This document shows positions 4,323 through 41,162 of a stretch of DNA of 64,000 bases, one piece after another (the first letter of the stretch is position 1; each line of letters starts with the position of its first letter). Below the pieces are notes generated by a model. The model saw only the letters and a program-made list of their open reading frames with translations. It searched no databases and was not told the DNA's origin. The stretch is from Candidatus Levyibacteriota bacterium (GTDB lineage: Bacteria; Patescibacteriota; Microgenomatia; Levybacterales; UBA12049), in assembly GCA_016432345.1 (NCBI GenBank), contig CP066685.1:304236-368235 (forward strand). Direction: 5' to 3'. A program made the translations under genes and the position numbers.

Positions 4323-5051
4323 ATGCTAATTATTAAAAATCTGCAAATTTCAGTACAAGATAAAGAAATAGTTAAGGGAATTGACTTAACAATTAAAAGC
4401 GGAGAAGTACACGCTATTATGGGGCCAAATGGCGCTGGTAAAACAACGTTAGCCATGGGGATGATGGGACAACCGCAGTTCAAAGTTCAAAGTTCAAAGT
4501 TTAAAGTTAATGGTGAGGATATGCTTAATAAGCTACCTGAAGAACGGGCAAGGGCTGGGCTTTTTGTATCGTTTCAGTCTCCGGTTGAAATAACAGGGGT
4601 ATCATTTTTATCGTTTCTTCGTACTGCTTATAAAGCACTTTATAGTCAGGAAAAAGTACCGCTGTCAGAATTTAAACAAAGAGTGAAAAATGCGTTAGCA
4701 ACAGTGTTTCTTCCTGAAGAATTTATGCATAGATCGCTTAACGAAGGGTTTTCGGGAGGAGAAAAAAAGCGAGCAGAAATTGCCCAGTTATTGGTGCTGC
4801 GGCCAAAATTTGCAATTCTTGACGAAATAGACTCCGGACTCGATGTTGATAGCCTAAAAATTGTTGCAAAGGCAATAAAAGAAGTAGTTACAAAGTATCG
4901 ATTGGGAATTTTTCTTATTACTCATTACCAGCGGATATTACATTACCTGCGGCCTAATTATGTCCATGTGTTAATGGATGGGAAAATTAAAAAATCAGGT
5001 GGTATTAGTTTAGTCCGCTTGATTGAAAAAGAAGGATATGCAGCAATTTAA
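4323..5051 (+). CDS. sufC: Fe-S cluster assembly ATPase SufC
   Basis: Walker [10 protein letters not shown], signature FSGGEKKR, Walker [18 protein letters not shown]. Collinear with E. coli SufC as I recall it. Confidence 0.95.
4478..4505 (+). repeat. Heptanucleotide array (GTTCAAA) x3 perfect plus GTTTAAA inside sufC
   Basis: Read directly: gttcaaa gttcaaa gttcaaa gtttaaa. It encodes [10 protein letters not shown]. Confidence 0.95.
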
Positions 5052-6429
5052 TACTTCCAATTATGAATATGGATTCCATGATCTTATAAAGCCGGTTTTT
5101 TCAACAAAAAAGGGTTTGTCAGAAAAAGTGGTAAGAGAAATTTCCTGGATGAAAAAAGAGCCAGCATGGATGTTAGAGCATAGGCTTAAGGCACTCGCTC
5201 TTTTTTACTCCAAAAAAATGCCTGGTTTTGGTGGGGATTTATCTACTCTTGATTTTGATAATATTTTTTATTATGTAAAGCCAATGGACAAGCAGGGACG
5301 TACTTGGGAAGAGGTGCCATCTGAAATTAAAAACACCTTCGATAAGATTGGTATTCCAGAAGCAGAGAAAAAATTTTTGGCAGGAGTTGGCGCGCAATAT
5401 GATTCAGAAATGGTATACCACAGTGTTTCTAAAATGCTCGAGAAAAAAGGCGTTATTTTTGTTGACACAGACACTGCAGTACAAAAATACCCAGAACTAG
5501 TTCGGCAATATTTTGGCACTATTATTCCAGCTGCCGATAACAAATTTGCTGCATTAAATACAGCTGTTTGGTCTGGTGGGTCATTTATCTATATACCTAA
5601 AGGTGTTTATGTAGAGCTTCCGCTTCAAGCCTACTTTCGTATTAATGCCAAAAATATGGGACAGTTTGAGCGGACTTTAATTTTGGCAGACGAGGGAAGT
5701 TACGTCCATTATGTCGAGGGATGCACTGCACCGATATTTACTACCGATTCGCTCCATTCTGCAGTGGTTGAAATTTTAGTAAAAAAAGGAGCACGAGTTA
5801 GGTACACAACAATTCAAAATTGGAGCAAGAATGTATACAACTTAGTTACCAAACGGATGTTTGTGGAAGAAGAAGGTTTTGGTGAATGGATAGATGGGAA
5901 TTTAGGTAGTCAACTAACCATGAAATATCCATCGGTGTACCTAAAGGGAAGAAAAGCCCGGGGAGAAATTTTATCTTTGGCATTCGCGGGAGCAGGGCAA
6001 CATCAAGATGCGGGGGGAAAGGCAATCCACTTAGCGCCAGAGACAACATCTGTTATTAGCTCAAAATCGGTCAGTAAAGATGGCGGGCGAACTTCGTATC
6101 GGGGGCTGTTGAAGGTTGCTAAAGGTGCAGTAAATAGTAAATCAACAGTCAGATGCGATGCTCTTATTTTGGATGATAAAAGTAGATCGGATACTTATCC
6201 GACAATGGAAATTAATGAAGAAAAAGTGACTATTGGACACGAAGCCTCGGTTTCAAAAATTGGTGAAGAGCAGTTATTTTACTTTCAATCTCGTGGTATT
6301 CCCCAAGCGCAAGCGGAAGTGATGATTGTTAATGGATTTGTCGAGCCAATTGTGCGGGAGTTACCAATGGAATATGCGGTGGAACTAAATAGATTGATTC
6401 AATTGGAGATGACAGGGGCGGTTGGATGA
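5038..6429 (+). CDS. sufB: Fe-S cluster assembly scaffold SufB
   Basis: ORF 5023..6429 (TTG at 5023; first ATG at 5038). Conserved SufB blocks are [27 protein letters not shown] and HEASVSKI. Confidence 0.93.
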
Positions 6430-6995
6430 AGAATATAAAAATAGTTGTAAACAAAAATGAAGAAAAGGTAGTGCCGTTTGTGTGGGTAAATGGGAAAGAA
6501 ACGGAAGTTTCGATAGAAGCAAGGCTTGCAGGAGATGGTGCGAGTTTAAAAATTGTAGGGATTTTTTTTGGTTCAGATTCACATTCAGTAATTTTTAATA
6601 CCAACGTGGTGCACGAGGCAAAAAATACTAAGAGTCTTACTACTATTCGTGGGGTTTTTACAGATCACGCTTCTATTAATAATGACGGCATGGTGCGGAT
6701 TAACAAAGGAGCAAAAAATGCCGATGGGTATTTTGCTTCCAAAATTTTGCTTTTTGATAATGCAAAAGGCAGGAGCGTACCATCACTTGAAATAGATGAA
6801 AATGAATTAAAGGCAGGGCATGCCTCAACTGTTGGGAGACCAGACGAGAATCAGTTATTTTATCTTCGAAGTCGTGGCTTGTCGGAAAAGCAGGCCTCAG
6901 AATTAATTGTTTCGGGATTTTTTGAGCCTATTATTACGTTATTGCCACAATCTGATCAGGAAGTTGTGAGAAAGGAAATCTATGCAGCAATATAA
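6426..6995 (+). CDS. sufD: Short SufD-like Fe-S assembly protein (C-terminal SufB/D beta-helix region only)
   Basis: 189 aa with blocks [52 protein letters not shown] overlap with sufB. Confidence 0.8.
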
Positions 6996-8196
6996 AAAAG
7001 ATTTTCCAATTTTCCAGAAAAACCAAAAACTTGTTTATTTAGATTCTGCTGCAACAAGTCAAAAGCCAAAAATTGTACTAGATGCAATAGTGGAATACTA
7101 CGAAACTTATAATGCGAATGTTCGACGCGGTTTATATGCAATTGCCGAAAAAGCAACAGTAAAGGTAGAAGAGGTACGAAAACAGACAGCAAGGTTTATA
7201 AATGCCAAATATCCAGAAGAGATAATTTTTGTTCGCAATGCCACAGAGGCAATAAATTTAGTAGCCTATAGTTTAGGAAACTATATCAAAAAAGGAGATA
7301 GTATTGTTACAACAATTATGGAGCATCACAGTAATTTTGTGCCGTGGCAACAACTTGCCAAAATTAATGGTGCTAAATTTGAAGTCATAGATATCAATGA
7401 TAATTTTCAATTTTCAATTTTCAATTTTCAATCAAATCTCAATTTTCAAAAATCAAAAATGCTAGCTATTACGCATGTATCGAATGTTTTAGGGACAATT
7501 AATCCTATTAAGGAAATTATTAGAAAGGTAAGATCGAAAAATCCTCATATTAAAATTCTTGTTGATGCGGCACAGTCGGTACCACACATGTCAGTTGATG
7601 TGCAGGATTTGGATTGTGATTTTCTTGTATTTTCGGGGCACAAAATGATGGCAAGTACTGGCATTGGGGTATTGTATGGTAAAAAAGAATTATTGGCGCA
7701 GATACAACCATTTTTATATGGAGGAGACATGATTAAAGAAGTTACAATTGAACGGACAATCTTTGCAGACGTGCCGTATAAATTCGAAGCAGGAACTCCA
7801 GATATTGCTGGAATTATTAGTTTAGGTAGTGCAATTGAGTATATAAATAGTACGGGTATAAATAGAGTTCAGAATTATGAATTTAGAATTATGAATTATG
7901 CAATGGAGAGATTAAAAAAAATTGATGGACTCACGTTGTATGGTCCTCAAAATGCTCAAAACCGAAGTGGAGTAATAAGTTTTAACATTGATGGGATTCA
8001 CGCGCATGATGTGGCGCAGGTTTTGGGAGATATGAATATTTGTATTCGCTCCGGCCATCACTGCACCATGCCGCTCCACAAAAGATTAGGTGTGCCTGCC
8101 ACCGCCCGGGCAAGTTTTTATATTTATAATGATGAAGAAGATGTTGATAAACTTATTGATGGGTTAAAAGAAGTAAAAAAGATTTTTAGTCATTAA
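6982..8196 (+). CDS. sufS: Cysteine desulfurase SufS (class V aminotransferase)
   Basis: Blocks LAITHVSNVLGT, FSGHKM (PLP lysine) and RSGHHCTMPL (catalytic Cys loop). Collinear with E. coli SufS as I recall it. Confidence 0.95.
   Translation: MQQYKKDFPIFQKNQKLVYLDSAATSQKPKIVLDAIVEYYETYNANVRRGLYAIAEKATVKVEEVRKQTARFINAKYPEEIIFVRNATEAINLVAYSLGNYIKKGDSIVTTIMEHHSNFVPWQQLAKINGAKFEVIDINDNFQFSIFNFQSNLNFQKSKMLAITHVSNVLGTINPIKEIIRKVRSKNPHIKILVDAAQSVPHMSVDVQDLDCDFLVFSGHKMMASTGIGVLYGKKELLAQIQPFLYGGDMIKEVTIERTIFADVPYKFEAGTPDIAGIISLGSAIEYINSTGINRVQNYEFRIMNYAMERLKKIDGLTLYGPQNAQNRSGVISFNIDGIHAHDVAQVLGDMNICIRSGHHCTMPLHKRLGVPATARASFYIYNDEEDVDKLIDGLKEVKKIFSH
7402..7459 (+). repeat. Heptanucleotide array (AATTTTC) x4 perfect, followed by degenerate 7-nt units (aatcaaa tctcaat tttcaaa aatcaaa aat) inside sufS
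   Basis: Read directly. It encodes NFQFSIFNFQSNLNFQKSK. The degenerate tail mixes the AATTTTC and TCTCAAA unit types. Confidence 0.9.
7871..7900 (+). repeat. 14-nt tandem duplication (agaattatgaattt / agaattatgaatta) inside sufS
   Basis: Read directly. It encodes QNYEFRIMNY. Confidence 0.85.
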
Positions 8197-8210: not shown

Positions 8211-8633
8211 ATGAATAAAAAGATACCCAAAGTTAATGTAGATATTTTAATAATAAGAGGAAATAAGGTTCTTTTAGGGCTTTTAACCCAAAAGTGGAGT
8301 TATTTGGGAAAACAAATGTATGGTGTTCCAGGACGGGATGTTAAATTTGGAGAAAAAATTGGTGATACAGTAAAAAGAGATATTAGAAAAGATTTAGGTT
8401 GTGAGGTTTTGTCTCACAAAATTATTTGTGTAAACGCAAACTACGCGTTAGGAAATCATTATATTGGCATTGGGGTTGTGGCAGAAATAAAAGGGGAGAT
8501 TAAAAACTTAATTCCAGAAGATTGGGAGAAATGGGAATGGTTTGATAAAGATACAATTCCAAGTAATCTTTTTCCAGCGACTAAAAATCTTATTGAATGT
8601 TACTTAAAAAATAAATTTACGGTTTCTGAATAA
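8211..8633 (+). CDS. NUDIX-fold protein with a degenerate NUDIX box
   Basis: PGRDVKFGEKIGDTVKRDIRKDLG aligns to GX5EX7REUXEEXGU, but RE is replaced by RD and EE by KD. Embedded between sufS and sufU. Confidence 0.65.
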   Translation: MNKKIPKVNVDILIIRGNKVLLGLLTQKWSYLGKQMYGVPGRDVKFGEKIGDTVKRDIRKDLGCEVLSHKIICVNANYALGNHYIGIGVVAEIKGEIKNLIPEDWEKWEWFDKDTIPSNLFPATKNLIECYLKNKFTVSE

Positions 8634-9276: not shown

Positions 9277-11013
9277 ATGGTAGATTTTCAGTGGTTAATT
9301 GGTGGCGAAGCAGGATATGGCATTATGACTGTTGGCGCCATAATGGGAAAAGTATTTACTCGTCTCGGCTTGTCGGTTTTTGACTATACAGAATATCCTT
9401 CTCTTATTCGTGGAGGTCATAACGCGTATTATGTTAGGGCATCAGATGAAGAGATTTTTTGCCAGAAGCAGCCAGTTGATATACTCGTTGCATTAAATCG
9501 GGAAACAATTGATAGACACAAACACGAATTAACTCCGCAAGCGCTTGTAGTTTATGACCCGAATGTTACTAAGGTTGAGTCTACAGAATTTACTACACAA
9601 ACTCTTATTCTAATTCCTTTTTTAGAATTAACAAAGCAAGTTGGGGCAGATAGACTGATGATTAATACTGTGGCGGTTGGCGCATCGATTGCTCTTTTAT
9701 ACAATGATTTCTCTGTTTTAGAGGGAATACTCAAAGATATTTTTGGAAGAAAAGGTGAAAAAGTTATTGCGCTTAACGTTGATACCTCAAGAGCTGGGTT
9801 TGATTATGTTGTCAAAAATTTTGCCGGTAAATCACAAATTGCAATACAAGAAAAACCGCAGGAGAATTTGTTTATCGGCGGAGCTGAAAGTTTGGCTCTT
9901 GGGGCAATTCGGGCGGGGGTAAAGTTTGCAGCCATTTACCCGATGACACCTATTAATGCCGTCCTTACGACGCTTTCTGCATACGCACTTAAATATAACA
10001 TTGTGGTAAAAGAGCCGGAAGATGAAATTGCCGGAGTTAATATGGCAATTGGCGCCTCTTTTGCTGGAGTGAGAAGTATTGCTGCCACATCTGGCGGCGG
10101 TTTTGCTTTAATGGTAGAAGGTTTAGGTCTTGCAGCCCAAACCGAAACACCGCTTGTAGTAATTGAAGGTATGCGACCAGGGCCAGCAACAGGTATGCCA
10201 ACTTGGACAGATCAGGGTGATGTGAGGTTTGTTTTGCATGCGGCGCATGGAGATTTTCCTCGAATTGTTGTTGCTCCGGGCGATTGTCTGGAGGCATTTA
10301 CATATGTAATGGAAGCATTTAATTTAGCAGAAAAGTATCAAATGCTTGTTATTGTGCTTACAGATAAATATCTTAATGAAGGACACACCACACTCAAAAT
10401 CTCAAATCTCAAATCTCAAATCTCAAATTATAAAATTGACAGGGGGAAGATGCTGACCGATGAAGAAGCATTAAAAGAGACAGATTATAAACGATATCTG
10501 TTTACAGAAGATGGAATTTCACCACGTTCAATACCTGGCCAGCAGAATGGAATTGCCTTAAATGGATCCGATGAACATGATGAGAAGGGTTTGTATAACG
10601 AAACTTCAAAAATGCGAACAACAATGATGGACAAACGTTTTAAAAAATTAGACGCGGTTGCAAAAATATTGCCGCCGCCTGTAATATACGGCGACAAAGA
10701 TGCAAGTCTTACTATTGTTGGATTTGGATCGACAAAATTGCCGGTACTCGAGGCAATAAAGTGGTTAAAAAAAGAAGGAATAAGTGTTAATTTTTTGCAG
10801 GTTGTATATCTAAATCCCTTTCCGGCAGATGTGGTACTACAAATATTAACTGGTGCAAAAAAAACATTGGTTATCGAAGGTAATAAAACAGGCCAATTCG
10901 AAAGTGTTGTTCGGGAAAAGACAGGATTTGTATTTAGTAATCATTTTCGAAAATATGACGGCCGACCATTTTACCCGGAGGAAATAGTGGAGAAGGTGCG
11001 GTCATTACTATGA
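9277..11013 (+). CDS. 2-oxoacid:ferredoxin oxidoreductase, fused gamma/alpha subunit
   Basis: ORF 9235..11013. The likely start is ATG 9277, just after the ferredoxin stop. Blocks GGEAGYGIMT, AAIYPMTPI, GASFAGVRSIAATSGGGFALM and EGMRPGPATGMPT. Confidence 0.88.
   Translation: MVDFQWLIGGEAGYGIMTVGAIMGKVFTRLGLSVFDYTEYPSLIRGGHNAYYVRASDEEIFCQKQPVDILVALNRETIDRHKHELTPQALVVYDPNVTKVESTEFTTQTLILIPFLELTKQVGADRLMINTVAVGASIALLYNDFSVLEGILKDIFGRKGEKVIALNVDTSRAGFDYVVKNFAGKSQIAIQEKPQENLFIGGAESLALGAIRAGVKFAAIYPMTPINAVLTTLSAYALKYNIVVKEPEDEIAGVNMAIGASFAGVRSIAATSGGGFALMVEGLGLAAQTETPLVVIEGMRPGPATGMPTWTDQGDVRFVLHAAHGDFPRIVVAPGDCLEAFTYVMEAFNLAEKYQMLVIVLTDKYLNEGHTTLKISNLKSQISNYKIDRGKMLTDEEALKETDYKRYLFTEDGISPRSIPGQQNGIALNGSDEHDEKGLYNETSKMRTTMMDKRFKKLDAVAKILPPPVIYGDKDASLTIVGFGSTKLPVLEAIKWLKKEGISVNFLQVVYLNPFPADVVLQILTGAKKTLVIEGNKTGQFESVVREKTGFVFSNHFRKYDGRPFYPEEIVEKVRSLL
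10392..10434 (+). repeat. Heptanucleotide array (TCTCAAA) x4 perfect (10400-10427) with degenerate flanking units, inside the oxidoreductase alpha gene
   Basis: Read directly: actcaaaa tctcaaa x4 ttataaa. It encodes KISNLKSQISNYK. Confidence 0.95.
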
Positions 11014-12223: not shown

Positions 12224-12649
12224 ATGGCTCTGAAAGTTTTTGTCGATACAGATGTTGTAATTTCTTCTCTTATTTCGCCAACTGGCGCAGCACATTTTTT
12301 ACTCAACCAAACAGACGACTTTGATTTGTTTGTTTCAAATATATCTGCAAAAGAAATCGACAAAGTTGTAAAACGGCTGCATCTTGATATAGAAAAAGCA
12401 AAAAATCTTATACAGAAACGTTTTTTTACTGTTCAATTAAAAGAAACGATTGAAGATATAAAATTAGTTTTCGATGAATATGTATTAGATATTAATGATG
12501 CGCATATTGTAGCGGGCGCAAAAACTGCGCATGCGCAATTTCTTATTTCTTACAATACAAAACACTTTAAGGCAGATAAATTAAAAAAAGATTTTAATAT
12601 TATTCTTGCCACTCCGGCAAGCTTTCTACAATATTTAAGAAGCCATTAA
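12224..12649 (+). CDS. PIN-domain ribonuclease, probable type II toxin
   Basis: ORF 12053..12649, with the real start likely ATG 12224. KVFVDTDVVISSLISPTGAAHFLL has the acidic PIN N-terminal signature, and a later D is present at DINDAHIV. Confidence 0.75.
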   Translation: MALKVFVDTDVVISSLISPTGAAHFLLNQTDDFDLFVSNISAKEIDKVVKRLHLDIEKAKNLIQKRFFTVQLKETIEDIKLVFDEYVLDINDAHIVAGAKTAHAQFLISYNTKHFKADKLKKDFNIILATPASFLQYLRSH

Positions 12650-13780
12650 GCTCTCTTTTAAGATTTCCTTATATACCTTTTTATACTCATCTACCATTTT
12701 TTCTACAGTAAAGTTTTCTTCAACATGTTTGCGGCACAAACGGCGCATTTGTAGATATTCATTTTTAGGCATTGCATATATTCGGTTAACTGCCTCGCGC
12801 AAACCGTTAATACCTGTTTTTTTAATAATCCAGTTTCCTCTTATATCATCATCTGACGGATTCACAATAAAGCCAGTTTCTCCATCTTTTATGATTTCAG
12901 GTATTGATCCTCGTCCATACGCAATAACAGGAGTTCCACATGCCATAGATTCAGTCATAACTAGTCCAAAAGGTTCTTCCCATTGAACAGGGAAAAGGAA
13001 AAGCTTACTTGTTTGAAAGTGTTTAATGAGCTCATGGCGATTTTTATTTAAAGCAATAGAAATTGAAGTGGAAAGGTTAACCTGATCAATTTTTTGCAAA
13101 ATATCATTAAACCACAGTTTATGCTCGCTTTTTGTAATTCCAAAAAGTTTGAGGTTTTGTTTTGTCAGCCTTGCTATCTCTATGACAATATCCATTCCTT
13201 TTTGAGGAATTGCCCGTCCTGCCCACATCATGTTTGTACCTCCTTGGGGATTAAAGATAAAACTATGGTAAGCATCGATTCCATGATAGATAGTAGCAAT
13301 ATAGGGTAGGTATGGTAAGCGTTTTCTTTGTATGTTAGTTGGAGAAACAAAGTAGACGTTTTTGTTCTCTTCGAAGAGAGAGAAATATTTTTTTGCATAC
13401 TGGATATCTGTGGGGTGATATAAAGTAATCAGAATAGGTTTTTTTACAAAAGGGGCAAAAGGTAGGGCAATGTCGCCATCACCTATATTAATATGATAAA
13501 GATCAAACTTATCTTGTTGCGAGAAGGCTTTGGAAAGAAGTGCTAATTCAAAGATAATGTGCTTACCGGCTTTAATAATATGCTCATTAGCAGTAGAGGG
13601 ATAATAATCAATACTCTCGATTTTTGTAGGTAGGTCAGAATCTCCGGAAGCAAAAGTCGTGATTTGAAGACTTTTTTGTTTTACCAAGCTATTAATAAAG
13701 GTATGAACAATAATTTCTGTCCCTTTTTTTGTAGTCTTTTTAAGACTAAGATAATTTGAAGCAATAATTGCGACTTTCAT
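12635..13780 (-). CDS. GT4 (GT-B fold) glycosyltransferase
   Basis: C-terminal motif EEPFGLVMTESMACGTPVIAYGRGSIPEIIKDGETGFIV (EX7E type). Confidence 0.85.
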   Translation of the reverse strand: MKVAIIASNYLSLKKTTKKGTEIIVHTFINSLVKQKSLQITTFASGDSDLPTKIESIDYYPSTANEHIIKAGKHIIFELALLSKAFSQQDKFDLYHINIGDGDIALPFAPFVKKPILITLYHPTDIQYAKKYFSLFEENKNVYFVSPTNIQRKRLPYLPYIATIYHGIDAYHSFIFNPQGGTNMMWAGRAIPQKGMDIVIEIARLTKQNLKLFGITKSEHKLWFNDILQKIDQVNLSTSISIALNKNRHELIKHFQTSKLFLFPVQWEEPFGLVMTESMACGTPVIAYGRGSIPEIIKDGETGFIVNPSDDDIRGNWIIKKTGINGLREAVNRIYAMPKNEYLQMRRLCRKHVEENFTVEKMVDEYKKVYKEILKESLMAS

Positions 13781-13789
13781 AAACTTTTG

Positions 13790-16018
13790 TCATGCTAGAC
13801 TGGATAATGTTTTTAGAAACTCTGCTGACCAGCGGTAGATATTATGAATTTTAACCACCTCTCTCATTTTAATCATTCGTATTGTTTGTTCTGATTCTTT
13901 CATCTCCAGTCCTAATTGTATAGCATCGGCAACCTGCTCTATATTATAGGGATTAATAATTAAAGCATCTTTTAGTTCGCGCGAAGCTCCAGCAAATTGA
14001 CTTAAAATTAATACTCCTTTCTCATCGCTTCTTGAAGCAACGAACTCTTTTGATACAAGGTTCATGCCGTCATGGAGAGAAGTGACTAAGCATATATTTG
14101 CTATTTTGTAAAATTCATTGATTTCTTTGTGCGTATAGCGTTTTTTAAGAAAAATTATTGGTTTCCATCCTTTCGTTTGAAACATGGCATTAATTTTTTC
14201 TACTTCTGTTTTGACGTCGTTTTCAAAATCTTGGTACCTTTTTATTTTGCTTCGCGAGGGAGGCGAGACCTGAATAAATGTAAAATGCTCTTTGTATGAG
14301 GGATATTTATTTAAGAAAAACGCAATTGCCTTAAACCGCTCTATGATTCCTTTTGTATAATCGAGTCTGTCAACGCCAAGCCCAATATATTTTGTTTTTA
14401 TGTCAAATGTTTTTAGTATATTGTTGCTATCCAGCTCGCCTGATTTGTCATTTGGTTCGGAGAGATATCCATTATAAAATGCTATACTTATGGGGAATGG
14501 TTTTATATAGCTTGTATGTCCATTTCTAGTTACGGCAAATTGTTCTAAATCAATCAGGGATTCTAATTCTCCTCCAACCGTATCAATAAAATTATTGCAA
14601 TACAGTTGCGTTTGAAAGCCAACTAAGTCTGCGCCTAAAATGCCGTTTAATAGTTCTTTACGGAATGGACAAATACGAAAAGATTCGGAATTTGGCCATG
14701 GGACATGCCAAAATATGCCAATTTTCGCATCAGGCCTCTGTTTTTTTATCAGTGTTGGAAGAAGCGCTAAGTGAAAATCTTGAATAAGCAGCATTGGATT
14801 TTTAATATTTTTAATTTCCTGTAGCACCGCTTTTGCAAATTTTTCATTTGCTGATTTGTATTCTAACCAATCTTCTTTTCTAAAGATTGGTCTTGTATGG
14901 GCAATATGGCAAAGCGGCCAAAGGCCTTCGTTGGAAAATCCATAATAATATCCTTTTTCTTCTTCTTCAGACAGCCAAACTCTGCGTAATGTATATTTTG
15001 GTTCATGGGGCGGGACTTTTACTCGATCATGATTGTCTACAACAAGCTTGTCAGCATTGCCGCTTCCATGGGCGATCCATGTGCCACCACATGCCTGCAT
15101 TACTGGTTCGATTGCTGTTACTACGCCACTTGTCGGGAAAAAATAACTTATGTCTCCCCCATTTTTTGTATGTATATATGGTTCTCTGTTAGATACGACG
15201 AGTATTGCTTGGTCTTTTAAAACATTTTTAATAAATTCCTTTAAACGTTCTGCTGTCCAAGGGGCATTAACCTTATCAAGTCCCAACTTTGCTTCCTCGC
15301 TTACGGCAAATCTTGCTTCCATCAGACTTCTATTAATGTTTGAAATTTCTCTAACGAGTGGTTGAAAAAAAGGGTTATTTGGTATCTGTTTAGACTTATC
15401 TCCTATACGAGTTGATTTTAATGATTCCACAATATTTTGTATGGGCTTATGAATAACCCATCGTAAAAATAAAATTGCTGCTATTGACAGAAGAAAAACC
15501 TGTATCGATAAACGCATTAAACTATTTCTCCATATTTCCTGTATGCGCGTATCAATATATCCAGCGTTTTGCGCTACCATCAAAGCTCCTACTACGCTTG
15601 TTTTGTCATGAAGAGGAACAGCAAAAATATATATGTTGCTGTCGTTAAGCGTAACGAAATCTCCGTTTGCCTTATCTCCATCCATTGCGTCAGATACAAT
15701 TTGTTGAGGTTCTAATGTTTCTTTAGATAAGCTTGAAGAAACAGCAATAATTTTACCCTTGTTGTCGAATATCGATAATCCAACGAGCCTTTCTTTATTG
15801 GCAAATTTTTCGACGACCGTTTGAAGATATTCATCTGATTTGTTAATAAAATTTGGCTCGACTGTTTCTCTTAAACTTTCTGCAAGGAGTGTTGATCTAT
15901 GTTGCAGGTCAATACTTAGTCTTTTTTCTTCTTGATCAACCTGTTTTATACTAAAGGAAATAACAACAAGTCCAACAATTGCCGCTATTAAAAAAACTAT
16001 TATTATAATTTGTCTCAT
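13790..16018 (-). CDS. otsA: Trehalose-6-phosphate synthase (GT20, OtsA) with an N-terminal TM / extracytoplasmic / TM / HAMP-like sensor module
   Basis: The C-terminal ~490 aa carry OtsA blocks: FSNEGLWPLCHIAHTRP, IQDFHLALLP, IGIFWHVPWPNSE, GADLVGFQT and LHDGMNLVSKEF. The N-terminal ~250 aa have two hydrophobic helices (aa 4-22 and 170-189) flanking a ~145-aa segment, then an amphipathic linker. Confidence 0.85.
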   Translation of the reverse strand: MRQIIIIVFLIAAIVGLVVISFSIKQVDQEEKRLSIDLQHRSTLLAESLRETVEPNFINKSDEYLQTVVEKFANKERLVGLSIFDNKGKIIAVSSSLSKETLEPQQIVSDAMDGDKANGDFVTLNDSNIYIFAVPLHDKTSVVGALMVAQNAGYIDTRIQEIWRNSLMRLSIQVFLLSIAAILFLRWVIHKPIQNIVESLKSTRIGDKSKQIPNNPFFQPLVREISNINRSLMEARFAVSEEAKLGLDKVNAPWTAERLKEFIKNVLKDQAILVVSNREPYIHTKNGGDISYFFPTSGVVTAIEPVMQACGGTWIAHGSGNADKLVVDNHDRVKVPPHEPKYTLRRVWLSEEEEKGYYYGFSNEGLWPLCHIAHTRPIFRKEDWLEYKSANEKFAKAVLQEIKNIKNPMLLIQDFHLALLPTLIKKQRPDAKIGIFWHVPWPNSESFRICPFRKELLNGILGADLVGFQTQLYCNNFIDTVGGELESLIDLEQFAVTRNGHTSYIKPFPISIAFYNGYLSEPNDKSGELDSNNILKTFDIKTKYIGLGVDRLDYTKGIIERFKAIAFFLNKYPSYKEHFTFIQVSPPSRSKIKRYQDFENDVKTEVEKINAMFQTKGWKPIIFLKKRYTHKEINEFYKIANICLVTSLHDGMNLVSKEFVASRSDEKGVLILSQFAGASRELKDALIINPYNIEQVADAIQLGLEMKESEQTIRMIKMREVVKIHNIYRWSAEFLKTLSSLA

Positions 16019-20121: not shown

Positions 20122-21024
20122 ATGAATATTGTTGGGAAAAAATATTGGTATTTTGGACTATCGCTTTTGGTGATTATTCCAGGGTTTATTTCGCTCTTTT
20201 TGTGGGGGTTACGGTTGTCGATTGATTTTACCGGAGGATCAAGAATTGAGTTTAGAATTCAGAATTCAAAATTCAAAATTGAGCGGTCAGAGTTTGAAAA
20301 AACAATAAAAAATCAAGGCATGGAGATAAGTTCGATACAGCAATCAAAAGATACATTTATTGTTAGGACTAAGCCGCTTGATCAAAAGACTCATCAAAAA
20401 GTAAAAGGAGCTATTGAATCGAAGTTTAGAGACGCTAAAGAAGTGAGTTTCCAGACAGTTGGGCCAACTATTGGGAAAGAAACAACCCTAAACGCAATAA
20501 AAGCAATTGTTGTGGCATCTATTCTTATTGTTTTATACATTGCGTGGTCATTTCGAAAAGTGCCAAAACCGGCCAGCAGTTGGCGGTTTGGCATATGCGC
20601 AATCGCAGCATTACTGCATGATGTGTTGGTGGTCGTTGGGATATTTTCGATTTTGGGTCATTTTTGGCATGTGGAAGTGGATAGTCTTTTTGTTACAGCC
20701 ATATTGACAATTATTGGATTTTCTGTTCACGATACGATCGTAGTGTTTGATCGGATTAGGGAAAACCTGCGAAGAATGCCTGGAGTAGCTTTTGCTAATA
20801 TTGTAAATGATTCGATATTGCAAACACTTAGCAGGTCTTTAAATACATCAATAACAGTTATTTTAGTTCTTTTTACAATGCTTTTGTTTGGAGGAGAAAC
20901 AATTAGGTGGTTTATTGTCGCGCTTCTTATTGGCATTGCCAGCGGGACATATTCTTCCATTTTCAATGCCGCCCCACTGTTGGTGGTTTGGCAGGAATTG
21001 ACAGAGAGAAGAAAACAGTCGTAA
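20122..21024 (+). CDS. secF: Protein translocase subunit SecF
   Basis: IDFTGGS, LLHDVLVVVGIFSI and GFSVHDTIVVFDRIRENL. Confidence 0.93.
   Translation: MNIVGKKYWYFGLSLLVIIPGFISLFLWGLRLSIDFTGGSRIEFRIQNSKFKIERSEFEKTIKNQGMEISSIQQSKDTFIVRTKPLDQKTHQKVKGAIESKFRDAKEVSFQTVGPTIGKETTLNAIKAIVVASILIVLYIAWSFRKVPKPASSWRFGICAIAALLHDVLVVVGIFSILGHFWHVEVDSLFVTAILTIIGFSVHDTIVVFDRIRENLRRMPGVAFANIVNDSILQTLSRSLNTSITVILVLFTMLLFGGETIRWFIVALLIGIASGTYSSIFNAAPLLVVWQELTERRKQS
20242..20281 (+). repeat. Heptanucleotide array (AGAATTC x2, AAAATTC, AAAATTG, plus an upstream AGAATTG separated by 5 nt) inside secF
   Basis: Read directly. It encodes IEFRIQNSKFKIE. Confidence 0.9.
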
Positions 21025-22277: not shown

Positions 22278-23078
22278 CTAAATGAGCCTTCCTAATCCGA
22301 TTTTTCTGCTTTTATGAAACATAAAAACAAAAAACCATATTGCTATTATTAAGTAGATAAAGTTAAGTCCGAAACTTATTAGTAGCTTATCATAAGAAAG
22401 GTTACCCGTAAAGAGAATTTCGCGAAATCCTTCAAAAATATAGCTGGTGGGAATAAAAAGAGCAACTTTTTGCGCCCAAACCGGCAATATGGTTACCGAA
22501 TAATAAATTGCCGAAAAAGGAGCAATTAAGTATACACCGGCCCATGCCAAGGTTTGGATATTTTGGCCATATCTAATAAGAAATCCGGTAACAAAAAATC
22601 CGGCAACCCAGCCGGTTAGAATAAGACTTGCAATAAGCGGCAGTAAGTAAAAGCCATAGATAAATATATTTAATTGATACAGTATAAATGCAACAATTGC
22701 AGAGAATGCTAGACTTAAAAGTGTTTTAATAAAACCAAAAATCATAAATGCGACAATCCATTCGGAAATTTTAAGCGGCGAAACAAAAATATTGACGATA
22801 TTTTTATCCCATATTTCGGCCAACATATTAGTTGTTATTTCGTATTGTGTCCGCCAGACAACGATCCAAAAAATAAGTCCGGTGATAACAACAAATAAAA
22901 GTTGGGAGGGGTTATTGTTATTTCTAATAAAATAGAGTCCGGTTAAGCCCCACATAATAATATCCATTGCAGGCCAATAAAACATGTCGCTTAGTTTGTC
23001 AAAGCTATGAAACATGCCATAGGTATAGCGAAGTATCATTGCAAATACTCTGTTAAAATTAATCATGTTTTTCTCCAA
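22278..23078 (-). CDS. ABC-2 type transporter permease
   Basis: 266 aa, 6 TM helices, overlapping the upstream ATPase gene by 20 nt. Confidence 0.75.
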   Translation of the reverse strand: MEKNMINFNRVFAMILRYTYGMFHSFDKLSDMFYWPAMDIIMWGLTGLYFIRNNNNPSQLLFVVITGLIFWIVVWRTQYEITTNMLAEIWDKNIVNIFVSPLKISEWIVAFMIFGFIKTLLSLAFSAIVAFILYQLNIFIYGFYLLPLIASLILTGWVAGFFVTGFLIRYGQNIQTLAWAGVYLIAPFSAIYYSVTILPVWAQKVALFIPTSYIFEGFREILFTGNLSYDKLLISFGLNFIYLIIAIWFFVFMFHKSRKIGLGRLI

Positions 23079-23976
23079 TAACAGTAAGAAAATAATCTTC
23101 TAGATTTGGTTTATCAATACTAATTTCTTCGTATGTAATATTTTCTTTTGATAATATAGTTAGGAATTCTGCGATACGTTTTTCTCGAATAGGAACAGTA
23201 AAAATAAATCTGTCTTGCGTAAACAATAAATTTTGTTTTTCTAAAAAACTGATTGCTTTTTTTGTGTCTTTAGAAATTGTTAATGAAATTTTACATTCTG
23301 TAATTTTGTTGGCTAATTTTTCTGGCGTATCTTCATCGATAATTTTTCCGTGATCCAAAATAATAATTCTATCGCACATTTCTTCTACTTCGCTCATATT
23401 ATGGGAAGTAAAAAGCATACTCACGTTGTATGCTTGTTTTTCTTTTTTTAAGAATTCCCGTACTTTTATCGCAATTTCTGGATCAAGACTGGCGGTTGGT
23501 TCATCAAGCAGTAATACTCTTGGGTAATTAAGAAACGCTTTGACAAGTAATACACGCGTTTTTTCTCCAGCCGAAAGCATAAAAAATTGTTTCTTTTTTA
23601 CATCTTCTATTTCAAATTCTTTAAGTAACTTATCTATTCTTTTTTGTTTGTCAGGTATTTCATAAAGCCTTGCAAAACATTCTAAGATTTCAGAAACGGT
23701 AAAAAGCCAGGGGAGACTAATATAGGTAGATGAGTAATTAACCTGTTTTAAAATTTCTTCTCGGTGGTTTTTAAAAGATTTATTAAAATAGGAAACTTCT
23801 CCTTTTGTTTGTTCCATAACACCCAAAAGCATTTGGATGGTTGTTGTTTTGCCCGCGCCATTTGGACCAAGAAGACCTAGTACCTCGCCTTCTTGTATAA
23901 AAAATGAAATATCATTAACAGCAGTAAAGCTACCGAACTGTTTGGTGAGATTTTTGACGTCGAGAATTGGGCTCAT
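23059..23976 (-). CDS. ABC transporter ATP-binding protein
   Basis: Walker [10 protein letters not shown], signature LSAGEKTR, Walker B LLLDEPTASLD. Confidence 0.92.
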   Translation of the reverse strand: MSPILDVKNLTKQFGSFTAVNDISFFIQEGEVLGLLGPNGAGKTTTIQMLLGVMEQTKGEVSYFNKSFKNHREEILKQVNYSSTYISLPWLFTVSEILECFARLYEIPDKQKRIDKLLKEFEIEDVKKKQFFMLSAGEKTRVLLVKAFLNYPRVLLLDEPTASLDPEIAIKVREFLKKEKQAYNVSMLFTSHNMSEVEEMCDRIIILDHGKIIDEDTPEKLANKITECKISLTISKDTKKAISFLEKQNLLFTQDRFIFTVPIREKRIAEFLTILSKENITYEEISIDKPNLEDYFLTVIGEKHD

Positions 23977-25316
23977 AGTTTTTTTATTCGTGTGAGGAGA
24001 TACTCTTTGGTGTTTTTTGATTGATCTGGGTCTACCTCTTCAAAAAGTTTTTGTAAAATTTCCCCTACTTTTGGGCCGGGTTTGATACTTAATTCTTTCA
24101 TAATATCATTGCCGTCAATTGCTAAATCGTTTATAGAAAATGCCGCGGGCTGTAATTCTTTTTCGATTCTTTCTTTGAATAGTTTTAGTCTCCAACTTTC
24201 GGCTGTTTTGGTGCCACTGCCAAGTCTATCGGCAACCCGAAGATCTAACATGTCTTGGATATTTTCTATTCCCACTCTTCGAATAAATCTTCTTATTGCG
24301 GCATCGGTTGATTTTTCGTCAACCGTAAACATGTGCCAGCGAATAAGGGTAATTATGGCATCTCTGTCTTTTTTTGAGAATTTAAGTCTGTCGCAAATTT
24401 CTCTGGCAATTCTGGCCCCGACAATTTCGTGATTGTAAAATATCACTAATCCTTGTTTATCTTCGCTTCTAGCTTTTGGTTTGCCAACATCATGCAGTAG
24501 AGTTGCAAATCGAACAATTGGGTCATTTGATGGACAAAATTTTAGAGAAAGTAAATTGTGGGTAAAAACATCGGTGGTGTGGTGGCGGCCTGGTCGCACT
24601 TGCGAAACATCAATACCTTCTGTAAGTTCGGGTAAAATATAATCTAATAATCCCGCATTTTTTAAAAGCATTATACCATCGTATGGATGATTGCTGGATA
24701 AAGTTCGTAGAAGTTCGATTCGAATTCTTTCTCCTGAAACGTGAGTAATAAGTGCAGCATCTTTTTGCAATTCGTTCCAGGTATTTTCTTCAATAATAAA
24801 TCCAAGTTCGGTGGCGATGCGTATGGCGCGAAGAAGTCGGAGGGCGTCTTCTTTGAATCGAAGACTCGGATCACCAACAGCGCGGATAATTTTTTGCTCG
24901 ATATCTTTTTGTCCGCCAAACGGGTCAACAATAGCGTTTAGTTTTAGAGCAATGGCATTGATGGTAAAATCGCGGCGAGATAAATCTTCTTCTATTGTTT
25001 TTCCCCATTCGACTTTGTCTGGCCGGCGTTTATCGGAATAGGTTGTTTCGGTTCGAAAAGTAGTTATTTCGGCAACGTGTTTTTCGTTGTTTATGACGAT
25101 TGGTACTCCAACAGTGCCAAATTGATTGTCGTAAAATCCGTCTGGGAATACTTTAAGGATTTCTTCTGGTGTTGCATTTGTCGTAAAATCCCAGTCTTTG
25201 ACTGGTTTTTTCATAAGTAAATTTCGGATGCTGCCGCCAACAAGATATACCTCGAATTTTGCATCAGCTATTTTTTGGTAAATAGAAATAATTTCGTTTG
25301 GGATATTGTTTGTCAT
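23973..25316 (-). CDS. cca: CCA-adding tRNA nucleotidyltransferase (poly(A) polymerase family head plus HD domain)
   Basis: VYLVGGSIRNLL, DWDFTT, RRDFTINA and HD motif LLHDVGKP. Both tRNA genes in the window lack an encoded CCA. Confidence 0.85.
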   Translation of the reverse strand: MTNNIPNEIISIYQKIADAKFEVYLVGGSIRNLLMKKPVKDWDFTTNATPEEILKVFPDGFYDNQFGTVGVPIVINNEKHVAEITTFRTETTYSDKRRPDKVEWGKTIEEDLSRRDFTINAIALKLNAIVDPFGGQKDIEQKIIRAVGDPSLRFKEDALRLLRAIRIATELGFIIEENTWNELQKDAALITHVSGERIRIELLRTLSSNHPYDGIMLLKNAGLLDYILPELTEGIDVSQVRPGRHHTTDVFTHNLLSLKFCPSNDPIVRFATLLHDVGKPKARSEDKQGLVIFYNHEIVGARIAREICDRLKFSKKDRDAIITLIRWHMFTVDEKSTDAAIRRFIRRVGIENIQDMLDLRVADRLGSGTKTAESWRLKLFKERIEKELQPAAFSINDLAIDGNDIMKELSIKPGPKVGEILQKLFEEVDPDQSKNTKEYLLTRIKKL

Positions 25317-25335
25317 CTGCTATAGTATAGCAAAT

Positions 25336-26973
25336 ATGAATATGAAGAAGTGGAAAGTTTTACATAAATTGAAAGATGAAAGTATCATAAACGTTCTTCT
25401 GGAAAATAGGGGAATTAAAACTAAAAAAGAGATTGGGGAGTTTTTACATCCGAAATTGGAAGATGTGACGGTAAAAAGCGTTGGCATTGATGGGGTTCAA
25501 TTGAAAAAAGCATTGCAAAGAATAGAAGAGGCAATTAAAAAGCAGGAAGAGATTGTGGTGTTTGGAGACTACGATGTAGATGGAATTTGCGGAGCTGCAA
25601 TTTTATGGGAAACACTTTTTTGCTTAGGAGCAAGAGTAATGCCATATATTCCTCATCGAATAGATGAAGGTTATGGTCTATCCCTTGCGGGAATCTCAAA
25701 TGTCAAATCTCAAATGTCAAATCTCAAATTGATAATAACGGTAGACAATGGAATAGTTGCAAATGAGGCGGTTTTGTTTGCTAATAAACAAGGTATAGAT
25801 GTTATTATTACCGATCATCATGTGGTGGGAGAAATACTGCCAAAAGCATATGCAATTGTTCATACAACTAAATTATGCGGAACAGGGGTGGCTTGGGTTT
25901 TAGCTCAAGAATACAAAATACAAAATACAAAATACAAAATACTAGATCATCTTGCTCTTGTGGCGCTGGCAACTGTGGCGGATTTGGTGCCATTAACTGG
26001 TGCGAATAGAACACTACTTATGCATGGTTTATCTGTGTTGCATAAAACAAAACGACTAGGTATTGTGGCAATATGCGAAGAGGCGGGAATTGACCAGAAA
26101 ACAATTGAGACGTATGAAATTGGTCATGTGATTGCGCCAAGGCTGAATGCAGCAGGGCGAATAGAGCATGCCATGGATGCCTTGCGACTTTTGTGCACCA
26201 AAGACACAAAACGGGCAAAACTGTTGGCGCAAAATTTAGGAGCAACAAATAGAGAAAGGCAGGATATAACGCTGGAAAGCGCGCAGCACGCAGTGTCAGG
26301 AATCAGGAATCAGGAATCAGGAATCAGGAAGAAATTACTTTTTATTGCGGAGGAGCAATATCAGCAAGGGGTGATTGGACTGGTTGCTGGGCGGTTGGTC
26401 GAGGAGTTTTATCGGCCGGCAATTGTGGTATCTATTGGGGAAACACATAGTAAAGCCTCGGCGCGGTCAATTCACGGATTTAATATTATTGAATTTATCC
26501 GTACTGCATCTCATTTGTTGATTGATGCAGGGGGGCATCCAATGGCAGCGGGGTTTACGGTGGAAACAGCAAAATTAACTCTTTTGCAAAAACATTTAGA
26601 GGAAAAAGCAGAAGAAATAATAGACGAGGCATTGTTGCAGCGATCGTTGCGAATTGACTGTGAAATTCCAATAGAAATTATTGACCAGCATTTATATAAA
26701 GAATTGCAAGCCTTAGCGCCGTTTGGCATGAAAAACCCAGAGCCGACATTTGTCAGTAGAAATGTTGTTATTGAAGATATGAGATTAGTAGGAAAAGACA
26801 GAAAACATGTAAAGTTTAAATTTTCGATTGACGCAATTGGGTTTGGGTTGGGAGAGAAAGCAGGGGAATTTAGTGTTGGGGATAAGGTGGATATTGTTTA
26901 TACGATTGATGAGAATGAGTGGAATGGAAGAAAAACGTTACAGTTGAAGGTGAGGGATATAAAGAGAAATTAA
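25336..26973 (+). CDS. recJ: Single-stranded-DNA-specific exonuclease RecJ
   Basis: ORF 25306..26973 (TTG), with the first ATG at 25336. DHH motifs VFGDYDVDGICG, ITVDNG, ITDHH, GTGVAW and GHPMAAGF. Confidence 0.92.
   Translation: MNMKKWKVLHKLKDESIINVLLENRGIKTKKEIGEFLHPKLEDVTVKSVGIDGVQLKKALQRIEEAIKKQEEIVVFGDYDVDGICGAAILWETLFCLGARVMPYIPHRIDEGYGLSLAGISNVKSQMSNLKLIITVDNGIVANEAVLFANKQGIDVIITDHHVVGEILPKAYAIVHTTKLCGTGVAWVLAQEYKIQNTKYKILDHLALVALATVADLVPLTGANRTLLMHGLSVLHKTKRLGIVAICEEAGIDQKTIETYEIGHVIAPRLNAAGRIEHAMDALRLLCTKDTKRAKLLAQNLGATNRERQDITLESAQHAVSGIRNQESGIRKKLLFIAEEQYQQGVIGLVAGRLVEEFYRPAIVVSIGETHSKASARSIHGFNIIEFIRTASHLLIDAGGHPMAAGFTVETAKLTLLQKHLEEKAEEIIDEALLQRSLRIDCEIPIEIIDQHLYKELQALAPFGMKNPEPTFVSRNVVIEDMRLVGKDRKHVKFKFSIDAIGFGLGEKAGEFSVGDKVDIVYTIDENEWNGRKTLQLKVRDIKRN
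25694..25728 (+). repeat. Alternating heptanucleotide array (TCTCAAA TGTCAAA) x2.5 inside recJ
   Basis: Read directly. It encodes ISNVKSQMSNLK. Confidence 0.95.
25910..25942 (+). repeat. Heptanucleotide array (ATACAAA) x4.6 inside recJ
   Basis: Read directly. It encodes EYKIQNTKYKIL. Confidence 0.95.
26296..26330 (+). repeat. Heptanucleotide array (TCAGGAA) x5 perfect inside recJ
   Basis: Read directly. It encodes SGIRNQESGIRK. Confidence 0.97.
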
Positions 26974-34157: not shown

Positions 34158-34189
34158 CTCGTCCCGATTCGGTCGGGACGAGTTTATTT
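34158..34189 (+). terminator. Rho-independent terminator (10-bp stem, 5-nt loop, TTTATTT tail)
   Basis: ctcgtcccga-ttcgg-tcgggacgag followed by tttattt, read directly. Confidence 0.75.
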
Positions 34190-36577: not shown

Positions 36578-36579
36578 AT

Positions 36580-36639
36580 ATGGACAAAGACAATCAACTT
36601 CATAAAAAAGCATTAATGCTGGAATATTTTACCATTGGC
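36580..36639 (+). pseudogene. Possible 20-codon N-terminal remnant of a cation-diffusion-facilitator-type transporter gene
   Basis: Manual translation gives MDKDNQLHKKALMLEYFTIG. This resembles the ..ALxLEYFT(I/V)(G/A)WN.. N-terminal block of one CDF subfamily, from memory. After codon 20 the frame runs into the GC-rich element and stops at 36742-36744. Confidence 0.25.
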
Positions 36640-36665
36640 CGTTTACAGAAAATGTTGAATTTCAA

Positions 36666-36861
36666 TGTGTTAGCTCGGCCTTCGGCCTCGCTTGCTCCGG
36701 CGCGGCACCCCGACCCGCCGCGCCTCCGAAACTTATGTGTTTAATCTATGTTTGTCGTCTCGAACTACTTTTTATACGATCGGCGGCTGCGGGTTTCGTG
36801 CCTAAATCCTGGATTTTCCGTGCTCGCTGCGGCGAGCCCCCCAAACCTAAATCAAAACTTG
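36666..36861. ncRNA. Unclassified GC-rich structured RNA candidate adjacent to (3' of) tRNA-Gln
   Basis: A sharp G+C island in an AT-rich background. Perfect hairpins at 36822-36837 (6 bp), 36699-36724 (8 bp, 10-nt loop) and 36672-36692 (3 bp + 2x2 internal loop + 4 bp) flank an AT-rich centre (36731-36780). Strand is not resolved. Confidence 0.45.
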
Positions 36862-36932: not shown

Positions 36933-36977
36933 CTGCGGCTTATTGTATCAAATCATCAGGTATGTTACAAAGTAAAC

Positions 36978-41161: not shown

Positions 41162-41162
41162 G

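Follow-up and report, generated by a model that had tools for sequence, protein, structure and literature searches.

Heptanucleotide arrays in the sufC and sufS genes

The DNA analyzed here, referred to as the window, is a 64-kb stretch (about 36% GC) of a metagenome-assembled genome (MAG) of Candidatus Levyibacteriota, a lineage of the candidate phyla radiation (CPR) with a tiny genome. It includes a suf operon with the order Rrf2 regulator, sufC, sufB, sufD, sufS, NUDIX gene and nifU, all on the + strand. The genes for SufC, the Fe-S cluster assembly ATPase, and SufS, a cysteine desulfurase, carry short tandem arrays within their open reading frames (ORFs). Three such arrays had been reported in the initial annotation and all of them were found in the same places; their period, which had not been given, is 7. 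The window SufC is a 100% match to the SufC annotated in a Levyibacteriota MAG and has no record elsewhere, while the nearest other SufS is only 80% identical. The two genes and their arrays are as follows.

4323-5051, + strand: sufC, host of array 1 (ORF; E = 3e-68 to E. coli SufC 2d3w)
4477-4508, + strand: array 1, heptamer AGTTCAA x4.6 with one C>T mismatch, in sufC
6982-8196, + strand: sufS, host of arrays 2 and 3 (ORF; E = 1e-125 to PDB cysteine desulfurases)
7402-7460, + strand: sufS site 1, AATTTTC x4.4, perfect at 7402-7432, then degenerate heptamers with TCAA every 7 nt to about 7460
7871-7897, + strand: sufS site 2, 14-nt unit AGAATTATGAATTT x1.9 (two 7-mers); 7871-7900 encodes NYEFRIMNY

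The initial annotation had compared the segments encoded by the arrays with E. coli sequences, and these agreed with the K-12 genes taken from RefSeq. The SufC segment REDYEVTGGTVEFKGKDLL aligned with E. coli K-12 SufC without gaps, as had been proposed, and the comparison with T. thermophilus SufC was likewise gap-free. The window and E. coli SufS proteins share 47% identity. Their alignment needed one gap at site 1, where the array peptide NFQFSIFNFQSNLNFQKSK makes the window protein one amino acid longer, and no gap at site 2, where QNYEFRIMNY and AEYEQNLMHY have equal length; both relations had been anticipated. The B. subtilis SufS and the chain 5vpr agree with the length picture obtained with E. 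coli SufS. In these alignments with E. coli and PDB orthologs, the array segments were not net insertions relative to all orthologs.

Predicted structures place the three arrays in different settings. In the AlphaFold model of SufC (pLDDT 93) the array would form both strands and the turn of a beta-hairpin, with strands at residues 53-56 and 59-62 separated by a two-residue turn (pLDDT >90), and the E. coli SufC counterpart of this hairpin comes after the Walker A helix. In the SufS model (pLDDT 79) array 1 is a low-confidence coil, with pLDDT <50 at residues 146-151, and array 2 lies inside an alpha-helix spanning residues 293-312 (pLDDT about 94). In these models the arrays are thus not limited to disordered loops.

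Conservation of array codons and turnover of units

The relatives L081 and L083 share the 31-nt AATTTTC array of the window sufS without a single change, and those of L082 and L085 depart from it at 1-2 nt. When codons for identical residues were compared in ten species pairs among five species, 113/113 were the same in the site 1 array, against 1462/2804 (52%) in the rest of the gene, and the degenerate heptamers beside the array diverge normally. The sufC array is found in an identical register in L219, where 10/11 of its codons are the same as in the window, compared with 76/173 (44%) elsewhere in the gene. These arrays are old and common to several species rather than events of the window genome.

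At sufS site 1 and in sufC, the position of the array recurs among relatives and units and lengths differ. At sufS site 1, arrays of at least six unit families are present in different lineages, the segment ranges from 25 to 50 amino acids across relatives, and in five Levybacteria it falls short of the window segment by exactly 7 amino acids (21 nt, or three units). At the SufC hairpin, nearly all of 120 relatives (65-81% identical) have a peptide with a 7-residue periodicity at the array position, such as FRIQNSEFRI, IKYQISNIKYQI, KCKVQSSKCKV or KWQIAGSKWQI. Self-matches within this segment number 294 at an offset of 7 amino acids and 28-133 at other offsets. The two strands of the hairpin co-vary inside each species and differ across species, which is the signature of concerted evolution. 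The segment is 31-49 amino acids long among relatives, and the 31 amino acids of the window belong to the shortest class.

Origin of the array units

A graded series can be seen at the second site of sufS. The segment is 35 amino acids long in all 16 orthologs compared, and its sequence runs from AATCACGAAAAAGAACTT in array-free species, through AGGAATCATGAATT-AGGAATTATGAATT in L001 and L085 and CAGAATTATGAATT-AGGAATTATGAATT in L219, to CAGAATTATGAATT-TAGAATTATGAATT in the window. Periodicity rises at each step and length is constant. A comparable site was found in the gene for pyruvate:ferredoxin oxidoreductase (POR).

10397-10428, + strand: AAATCTC x4.6 in POR (KISNLKSQISN)

The POR segment is 38 amino acids long in 10 of 10 Levybacteria orthologs, six of which carry arrays, of five different units. 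The motif [FY]-[KR]-[ILV]-E-R-G is kept in species with and without arrays, and the unit of each array-bearing species corresponds to its own downstream F-K-I/V codons, spread upstream. The native heptamers that precede the E codon and the upstream units are as follows.

AAGATTG, native; AAGATTC, upstream unit
AAAGTCG, native; AAAGTTC, upstream unit
AAAATTG, native; AAAATTC, upstream unit

The G>C change in POR avoids an in-frame TGA once the unit is read in three frames. The source of the sufC unit is equally local: the native AAAGTTA-ATGG, which encodes K-V-N-G of strand 2, has one AAAGTTT in front of it and, further upstream, three copies of AAAGTTC. Together, the sufC and POR changes (G>C or A>C/T) are those needed against TGA or TAA. 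Among 52 coding arrays, the 6 nt past the 3' end matched the phase-continued unit at a frequency of 0.53 and those at the 5' end at 0.40, against a background of about 0.3. The periodicity thus dies away gently at the 3' end and stops more sharply at the 5' end, which indicates that arrays usually adjoin a native downstream seed and have grown upstream. Units are identical at all seven positions within an array and differ between arrays; the perfect identity extends to free positions, and 14-nt higher-order arrays also exist.

These results uphold two statements of the initial annotation. The repeats are not foreign insertions, since in sufC and POR the units are the gene's own neighboring codons, and the idea of a local homogenization of an existing segment agrees with the fixed lengths at sufS site 2 and POR and with the graded series. 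A third statement, that protein length is kept, proved correct at sufS site 2, at POR and for SufC and SufS in comparison with E. coli; it does not extend to the SufC and SufS site 1 segments among relatives, with the ranges given above, or to a PMT_2 glycosyltransferase described below, which gained 12 amino acids.

Because all three frames of the unit are translated along a heptamer array, the unit must be cyclically stop-free. As the reverse complement of a unit containing TCA has TGA, only the sense orientation fits an ORF. The units are very A/T-rich (5-6 of 7 positions) and many have the form nnnTCAA. Stop avoidance combined with genome composition was rejected as the full cause of this form, because TCAA is expected in 6% of stop-free heptamers and was observed in 50%. 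A/T-richness rescues the explanation: in a unit that contains an A-run, a T and no more than one G/C, stops can be avoided only by the arrangement T-C-A-A. Arrays outside long ORFs are A/T-only or lack the C of TCAA. A role of TCAA as a conserved binding core was also considered and discarded, as imperfect arrays show the greatest variation in its T and C columns. Beyond stop avoidance in A/T-rich DNA the units, which include AATTTTC, TCAGGAA, ACGTGCT/ACAAGCT, CTATACG and GAATTAT, have no motif in common.

Arrays in the window and in related genomes

The phenomenon is genome-wide and clade-wide and not a property of suf. Tandem Repeats Finder plus exact-run scans of the whole window detected about 14 tandem arrays, imperfect ones included, all of period 7 or 14 and most of them 31-38 nt long, at a density of about 1 per 4.6 kb. 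The exact-run scan, which covered periods 2 to 21, returned perfect tandem arrays at periods 7 and 14 only. Nine perfect period-7 runs of at least 12 matched bases were observed, compared with a mean of 0.015 and a maximum of 1 in 200 triplet shuffles, which excludes a chance origin; by the same 12-base criterion no runs were present in the window at the other periods from 4 to 13. Units differ from array to array, with at least ten distinct units within 64 kb, every one in an ORF. The hosts of 14/14 arrays are long + strand ORFs, mostly housekeeping genes, and no known RNA families were found at the arrays. In addition to those of sufC, sufS and POR, the arrays are the following.

1070-1102, + strand: AATTTTC x4.7 in the N-terminal tail of a PMT_2 glycosyltransferase (NFQFSIFNFQF)
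20256-20280, + strand: AATTCAA/G x3.6 in SecF
25692-25729, + strand: 14-nt repeat AATCTCAAATGTCA x2.7 in RecJ, peptide GISNVKSQMSNLK; +2 and -3 amino acids relative to PDB RecJ chains
25910-25942, + strand: AATACAA x4.7 in RecJ (EYKIQNTKYKI); gap-free relative to T. thermophilus RecJ
26296-26330, + strand: TCAGGAA x5.0 in RecJ (SGIRNQESGIR); length about equal to that of PDB RecJ chains
32493-32550, + strand: AAATCTC-type array of about 8 units, imperfect, in glutamyl-tRNA synthetase (GluRS, GltX); -2 amino acids relative to T. maritima GluRS
46784-46818, + strand: AATTTTC x5.0 close to the N-terminus of a protein without a Pfam match
55751-55787, + strand: 14-nt repeat ACGTGCTACAAGCT x2.6 in a PTPS_related membrane protein
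57325-57354, + strand: CTATACG x4.3, imperfect, in a paralogous PTPS_related membrane protein
61385-61433, + strand: CAAATTA array in a GT2 glycosyltransferase, split by the 16-nt GC-rich perfect palindrome CCCGCCAGCTGGCGGG (61397-61412)

The PMT_2 tail is 12 amino acids longer in the window than in L219, the closest relative, a net insertion. This ORF starts at 1010 (METLAYFFSF, conserved in L219) and overlaps the 3' end of the preceding GT2/GtrA gene by 55 nt; its AATTTTC array begins 6 nt past the stop of that upstream gene. The recJ gene (25306-26973) bears the heaviest load of the window genes, with three arrays (starting at 25692, 25910 and 26296); RecJ is the 5'-3' single-strand exonuclease of recombination and repair. 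The GluRS array lies between the catalytic and anticodon-binding domains. The GluRS protein (31665-32903) matches PDB GluRS in two pieces, residues 3-96 and 91-410, and lacks about 35-45 residues of a catalytic-domain insertion in comparison with the T. maritima enzyme. Shortened enzymes of this type are frequent in CPR genomes.

Minus-strand genes amount to about 12.7 kb, or about 22% of the coding DNA of the window, and contain 0 of the 14 arrays (P about 0.03). The minus-strand gene blocks without arrays are these:

12635-16018, - strand
22278-25316, - strand
26975-28270, - strand
30558-31622, - strand
34188-34934, - strand
37538-38035, - strand
40517-41834, - strand
42948-44267, - strand

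This hints that the formation or the survival of arrays depends on gene orientation with respect to replication, although the distribution is only suggestive. Local GC skew tracks the gene strand, so that leading and lagging are inseparable from sense and antisense in the window.

A census was carried out on a sample of about 1.36 Mb that included the window, 80 loci encoding SufS relatives and loci for five closer proteins. The loci were chosen around suf genes and came from Levy-, Roizman- and Gottesmanbacteria and other Microgenomates. The perfect arrays were distributed by period as follows.

Period 7: 77 arrays (62 in ORFs of at least 450 nt, 15 non-coding or in short ORFs)
Period 8: 16 arrays (10 coding, 6 not; four represent one conserved SufS site)
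Period 14: 11 arrays
Every other period, including 3, 6 and 9: at most 6 arrays each

Period 7 also leads outside long ORFs, as expected for a mutational origin. More than 40 distinct units were recorded across the census loci. Array sizes cluster around two modes, 18-22 nt and 30-35 nt, and the largest do not exceed 38 nt. Corresponding protein positions carry arrays in Levy-, Roizman- and Gottesmanbacteria, even where the units differ. A metagenome scan with TCAAANN x4 (at least 120 contigs, 31-65% GC) also recovered in-frame arrays, and among the matches listed the free NN was the same in all units for 87/153. Judged by eye from the flanking residues, the host proteins in these contigs resemble LeuRS, the 5' exonuclease domain of Pol I, the GyrA C-terminal domain and ThiL. 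Coding heptamer arrays are widespread and the window genome is a rich case. A match of (AATTTTC)x4 to phages was set aside as uninformative because it was present in only 11 of 2.9 million viral contigs.

Several observations were made on individual loci of this sample. L085 and L086 are identical. The ENA scaffold L084, otherwise 99.98% identical to L083, differs from it by a scaffold gap exactly over sufC: a run of N at 8493-8594 covers most of the gene, including the AATTTTC array. Arrays, or strain variation at arrays, may break short-read assemblies. A Microgenomates sufS (L055, 5077-5097) carries an in-frame (AGGGTTT)x3, the plant-type telomere heptamer. A metagenome contig of 56% GC (L102) has four TCAAAAY arrays, each after the same GCSSACAA flank, and these look like a dispersed element rather than local arrays.

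GC-rich palindromes and other features

GC-rich perfect palindromes of 16 nt occur in A/T-rich coding DNA, several of them inside heptamer arrays; the form is (T)CCGCCAGCTGGCGG(A). The one in L002, TCCGGCGATCGCCGGA, is HIP1-like. The palindrome that splits the CAAATTA array of the window has CAA at both flanks and recurs in at least four other genomes. In relatives, palindromes encode SASWR, PAGG or SGDRR inserts in the SufC hairpin turn and in SufS. Either a very small in-frame palindromic element or another outcome of template switching may account for them. The sites are listed below.

61397-61412: window
10303-10320: L005
1789-1804: L036
162-177: L047
7434-7449: L002
19072-19093: L008
sufC segment: L085

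A 400-nt gap between ORFs at 36578-36977 includes a tRNA-Gln (36861-36932, minus strand). At 36690-36850 the GC content of this gap is unusually high and an 8-bp stem is present. The fold z-score of the GC-rich stretch is only -1.75, and no Rfam match was obtained for it even at E <= 1.

A proposed copying origin for the arrays and the evidence to be weighed

We think it rather likely that the arrays are heptanucleotide simple sequence repeats (SSRs) in coding DNA and that slipped-strand or template-switch copying both creates and preserves them, with an offset of 7 nt, sometimes 14 or 21 nt. In such a process a native heptamer, typically of A/T-rich codons (F-K-I/V, K-V-N), would be copied onto the adjoining 7 nt, and each copy would increase the homology at offset 7 until the tract reaches about 4-5 units, growing mainly upstream on the sense strand. 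Misaligned pairing of near-identical units would then correct new mutations, a form of concerted evolution that would leave perfect arrays frozen while the flanking codons drift. Selection would discard products with a stop in any of the three frames, a removal that would make sense units look like nnnTCAA. It would also discard products that shift the frame or, at constrained positions, change length or fold. The survivors would be found in beta-hairpins, surface helices, loops and tails of otherwise conserved proteins, and would appear as length-neutral replacements at constrained sites and as insertions in free tails. Length neutrality does hold in the window genome; it looks like a selective filter at constrained sites and not an obligate property of the mechanism.

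Copying by slippage or template switching fits the perfect copies, the 14-nt units, the 21-nt steps, the local seeds, the polarity and the clustered changes that raise periodicity. As a speculation, the upstream growth in genes that are mostly co-oriented with replication would fit slippage on the lagging strand. What the data establish is the anatomy and the statistics of the arrays, the local source of their units, how length behaves, the conservation of nucleotides and the recurrence across the clade. How the copying proceeds, how it is oriented with respect to replication and the lack of function are inferred; the arrays may nonetheless have a function. Two explanations remain for the constancy of array codons, the erasure of mutations by misaligned pairing or selection on the sequence.

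Some observations weigh against a copying origin of this kind. The data leave the preference for 7 nt unexplained. Heptanucleotides are the most abundant class of long SSRs in many prokaryotes, and a 7-nt contact of DNA polymerase was proposed as the cause of this bias (both from Mrazek 2007 as reported in PMC4679880); this contact is a published suggestion and not a result. The complete lack of synonymous change in AATTTTC among five species would be equally expected from purifying selection on a DNA or RNA element, and simple slippage does not predict the preferred sizes. AATTTTC is present at three unrelated sites of the window and in both sufC and sufS of L083, and such reuse of a unit at unrelated sites could reflect exchange between arrays rather than a purely local origin. 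In addition, the distance to the next SufS, at 80% identity, means that no single conversion event could be reconstructed.

A more active process, of which the arrays would be the marks and not passive remains, is a rather unlikely reading of the same facts. It would operate throughout this lineage of CPR bacteria, rewriting stretches of about 30 nt of essential genes in place with sequence of 7-nt periodicity and then keeping them invariant in the long term. It could take two forms, a repair pathway specialized in conversion or template switching that measures out 7 nt, or selection for a DNA- or RNA-binding factor that reads heptads. The GC-rich 16-nt palindromes inside arrays could belong to the same active system.

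Alternative explanations

That the arrays are functional cis-elements with a 7-nt register, bound by a protein that polymerizes on heptads, is unlikely in our estimation. Selection would keep them periodic, their length neutrality would result from point substitution in tolerant codons, and their nucleotide conservation goes far beyond synonymous saturation. The repeated occurrence of arrays at equivalent protein positions in Levy-, Roizman- and Gottesmanbacteria despite unit differences, the favored size of about 31-35 nt and the density in the window are also in line with bound elements. Proteins with the appropriate register are known: the ribbon-helix-helix omega repressor binds 7-bp heptads of inc18 plasmids, and cold-shock domains cover about 7 nt of mRNA each. 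Binding of cold-shock proteins was suggested for heptamer repeats (PMC4679880). However, the units have only stop avoidance in common, in imperfect arrays no columns are less conserved than the T and C of TCAA, many orthologs have no array at these sites, and no candidate binding protein was found. The perfect identity of free positions favors copying over a binding consensus. A second rival, quite improbable, is that arrays move between sites as small cassettes by ectopic gene conversion, from the genome or from DNA taken up. It would explain the turnover of units at a fixed site and the identical units at unrelated sites, among them the AATTTTC arrays at 1070, 7402 and 46784, the nearly identical 33-nt AATTTTC arrays in sufC and sufS of L083, and the AGTTCAA unit of the window sufC, which is found at sufS site 1 of P0042 and, in another register, in sufC of L082. 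Most units differ at 2-3 of 7 positions (nnnTCAA) and could pair. Nevertheless, the POR and sufC units follow the downstream native codons of their own lineage, arrays of the same unit have no flanks in common, and a tract of imperfect homology of 31-35 nt is short by the standards of RecA-type exchange.

Selection acting on the proteins alone would require that peptides with a 7-residue periodicity (K-h-K-h-Q-x-S) serve as hairpin or amphipathic helix modules encoded with an A/T codon bias. The sufC array is a confidently predicted beta-hairpin with two identical strands, sufS array 2 lies in a confidently predicted helix, and the 7-amino acid periodicity of the SufC hairpin is clade-wide. 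Still, this explanation is very improbable and is largely refuted by the synonymous-site result: minor codons, such as TTC beside TTT, are kept, and there were 0 synonymous differences where about 50% were expected. Furthermore, arrays also occur outside long ORFs, sufS array 1 is a low-confidence loop that is shortened or replaced in relatives, and the 14-nt arrays have no 7-amino acid periodicity. Finally, the unit length is not a multiple of 3 and phase-variable heptanucleotide repeats exist in pathogens, as would suit contingency loci in which gain or loss of a 7-nt unit toggles a gene. Such phase variation is hardly credible here. The hosts include single-copy housekeeping genes (SufC, SufS, RecJ, GluRS, POR and SecF), all of the orthologs examined keep the frame, lengths differ by whole codons, the 21-nt steps among them, and there are only 4-5 units per array.

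Relation to known repeat systems

The nearest known class is that of the long SSRs of prokaryotes, with which the arrays share perfect short units arranged head to tail, a preference for 7 nt, a proposed origin by slippage and a lineage-specific distribution. Tandem copies of a 1-11 nt unit longer than expected by chance are what was found (9 versus 0.015), and a unit length of 7 predominates both in the window and in the 1.36 Mb of relatives. As cited in PMC4679880, the survey of Mrazek, Guo & Shah (2007, PNAS) found units divisible by 3 to be the likeliest in coding regions. Units not divisible by 3 are mainly non-coding in that class, whereas 62/77 period-7 arrays are in ORFs of at least 450 nt here. 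The heptamers described above also differ in that they lie in conserved housekeeping genes, in frame by virtue of their total length and often replacing codons one for one, and in that they persist at orthologous positions clade-wide with conservation at the nucleotide level.

Families of tandem heptamers are known as well. The short tandemly repeated repetitive (STRR) heptamers of cyanobacteria were reportedly described by Mazel et al. in 1990. TAACTGA repeats, also tandem 7-nt units, occur in Beggiatoaceae, Cyanobacteria and Bacteroidetes (PMC4679880). Both share with the arrays the tandem 7-nt units, the 2 to tens of copies and the many loci per genome. They consist of a few fixed units genome-wide, are mostly intergenic and are suspected to be regulatory, and TAACTGA has stops in all frames; in contrast, the window arrays are coding and each site has its own unit derived from local codons.

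The initial annotation had set the arrays apart from two coding systems, and that contrast holds. Rickettsia palindromic elements are in-frame mobile insertions of about 100-150 bp with a common sequence that add residues. The shared trait is that repetitive DNA is tolerated at surface positions of conserved protein genes. The arrays, on the other hand, are about 33 nt long, locally derived and mostly length-neutral, and alignments with PDB and E. coli orthologs were gap-free or differed by +/-1-5 amino acids, as opposed to the net insertions produced by those elements. The 16-nt GC-rich palindromes inside some arrays may come closer to this type of element. Borg tandem repeats are also perfect, locally derived and A-rich on the coding strand, with partial repeats at their flanks, and they too rewrite protein segments. 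In ORFs their units are always divisible by 3, and they lengthen the protein and give rise to disordered regions, most often in extracellular proteins (PMC9879509). The units described here, 7 or 14 nt long, are translated in three frames, so the peptide period of 7 amino acids is reached only after 21 nt, length is often the same, and the arrays are in folded elements of core enzymes.

Templated mutagenesis by transient template switching at quasi-repeats or quasi-palindromes, reportedly studied by Ripley and by the Lovett laboratory, is said to concern single hotspots in laboratory E. coli and phage T4. The clustered substitutions that perfect an imperfect repeat at constant length, as at sufS site 2 and POR, are a common trait, and transient template switching may operate in these arrays. 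To our knowledge, it has not been recognized as a genome-wide, period-specific shaper of proteins. The omega protein of pSM19035 binds cooperatively to contiguous 7-bp heptads that follow a single consensus (WATCACW) and are located in promoters or parS. The arrays agree with these heptads in period and copy number; they are intragenic, lack a common consensus and do not preferentially conserve a core.

Significance

No account of coding heptamer arrays in CPR bacteria turned up in full-text searches. The 7-nt bias of prokaryotic SSRs is already documented; the location in coding housekeeping genes breaks the published expectation for units not divisible by 3. Array segments in Patescibacteria co-vary as DNA repeats, and in annotation and phylogenetics they should not be treated as normal homologous columns. 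The usual assumption is that conserved enzymes evolve through point substitutions and loop indels. If the copying explanation is right, a bias at the DNA level writes identical 7-base units into the folded core of essential proteins, among them the SufC beta-hairpin, a SufS helix, RecJ, GluRS and POR, and the sequence so written is translated in all three frames and then remains fixed at the nucleotide level from species to species. The arrays would then provide a natural system for templated mutagenesis and for concerted evolution at the scale of a few codons, and they would show the extent of arbitrary sequence that folded proteins tolerate.

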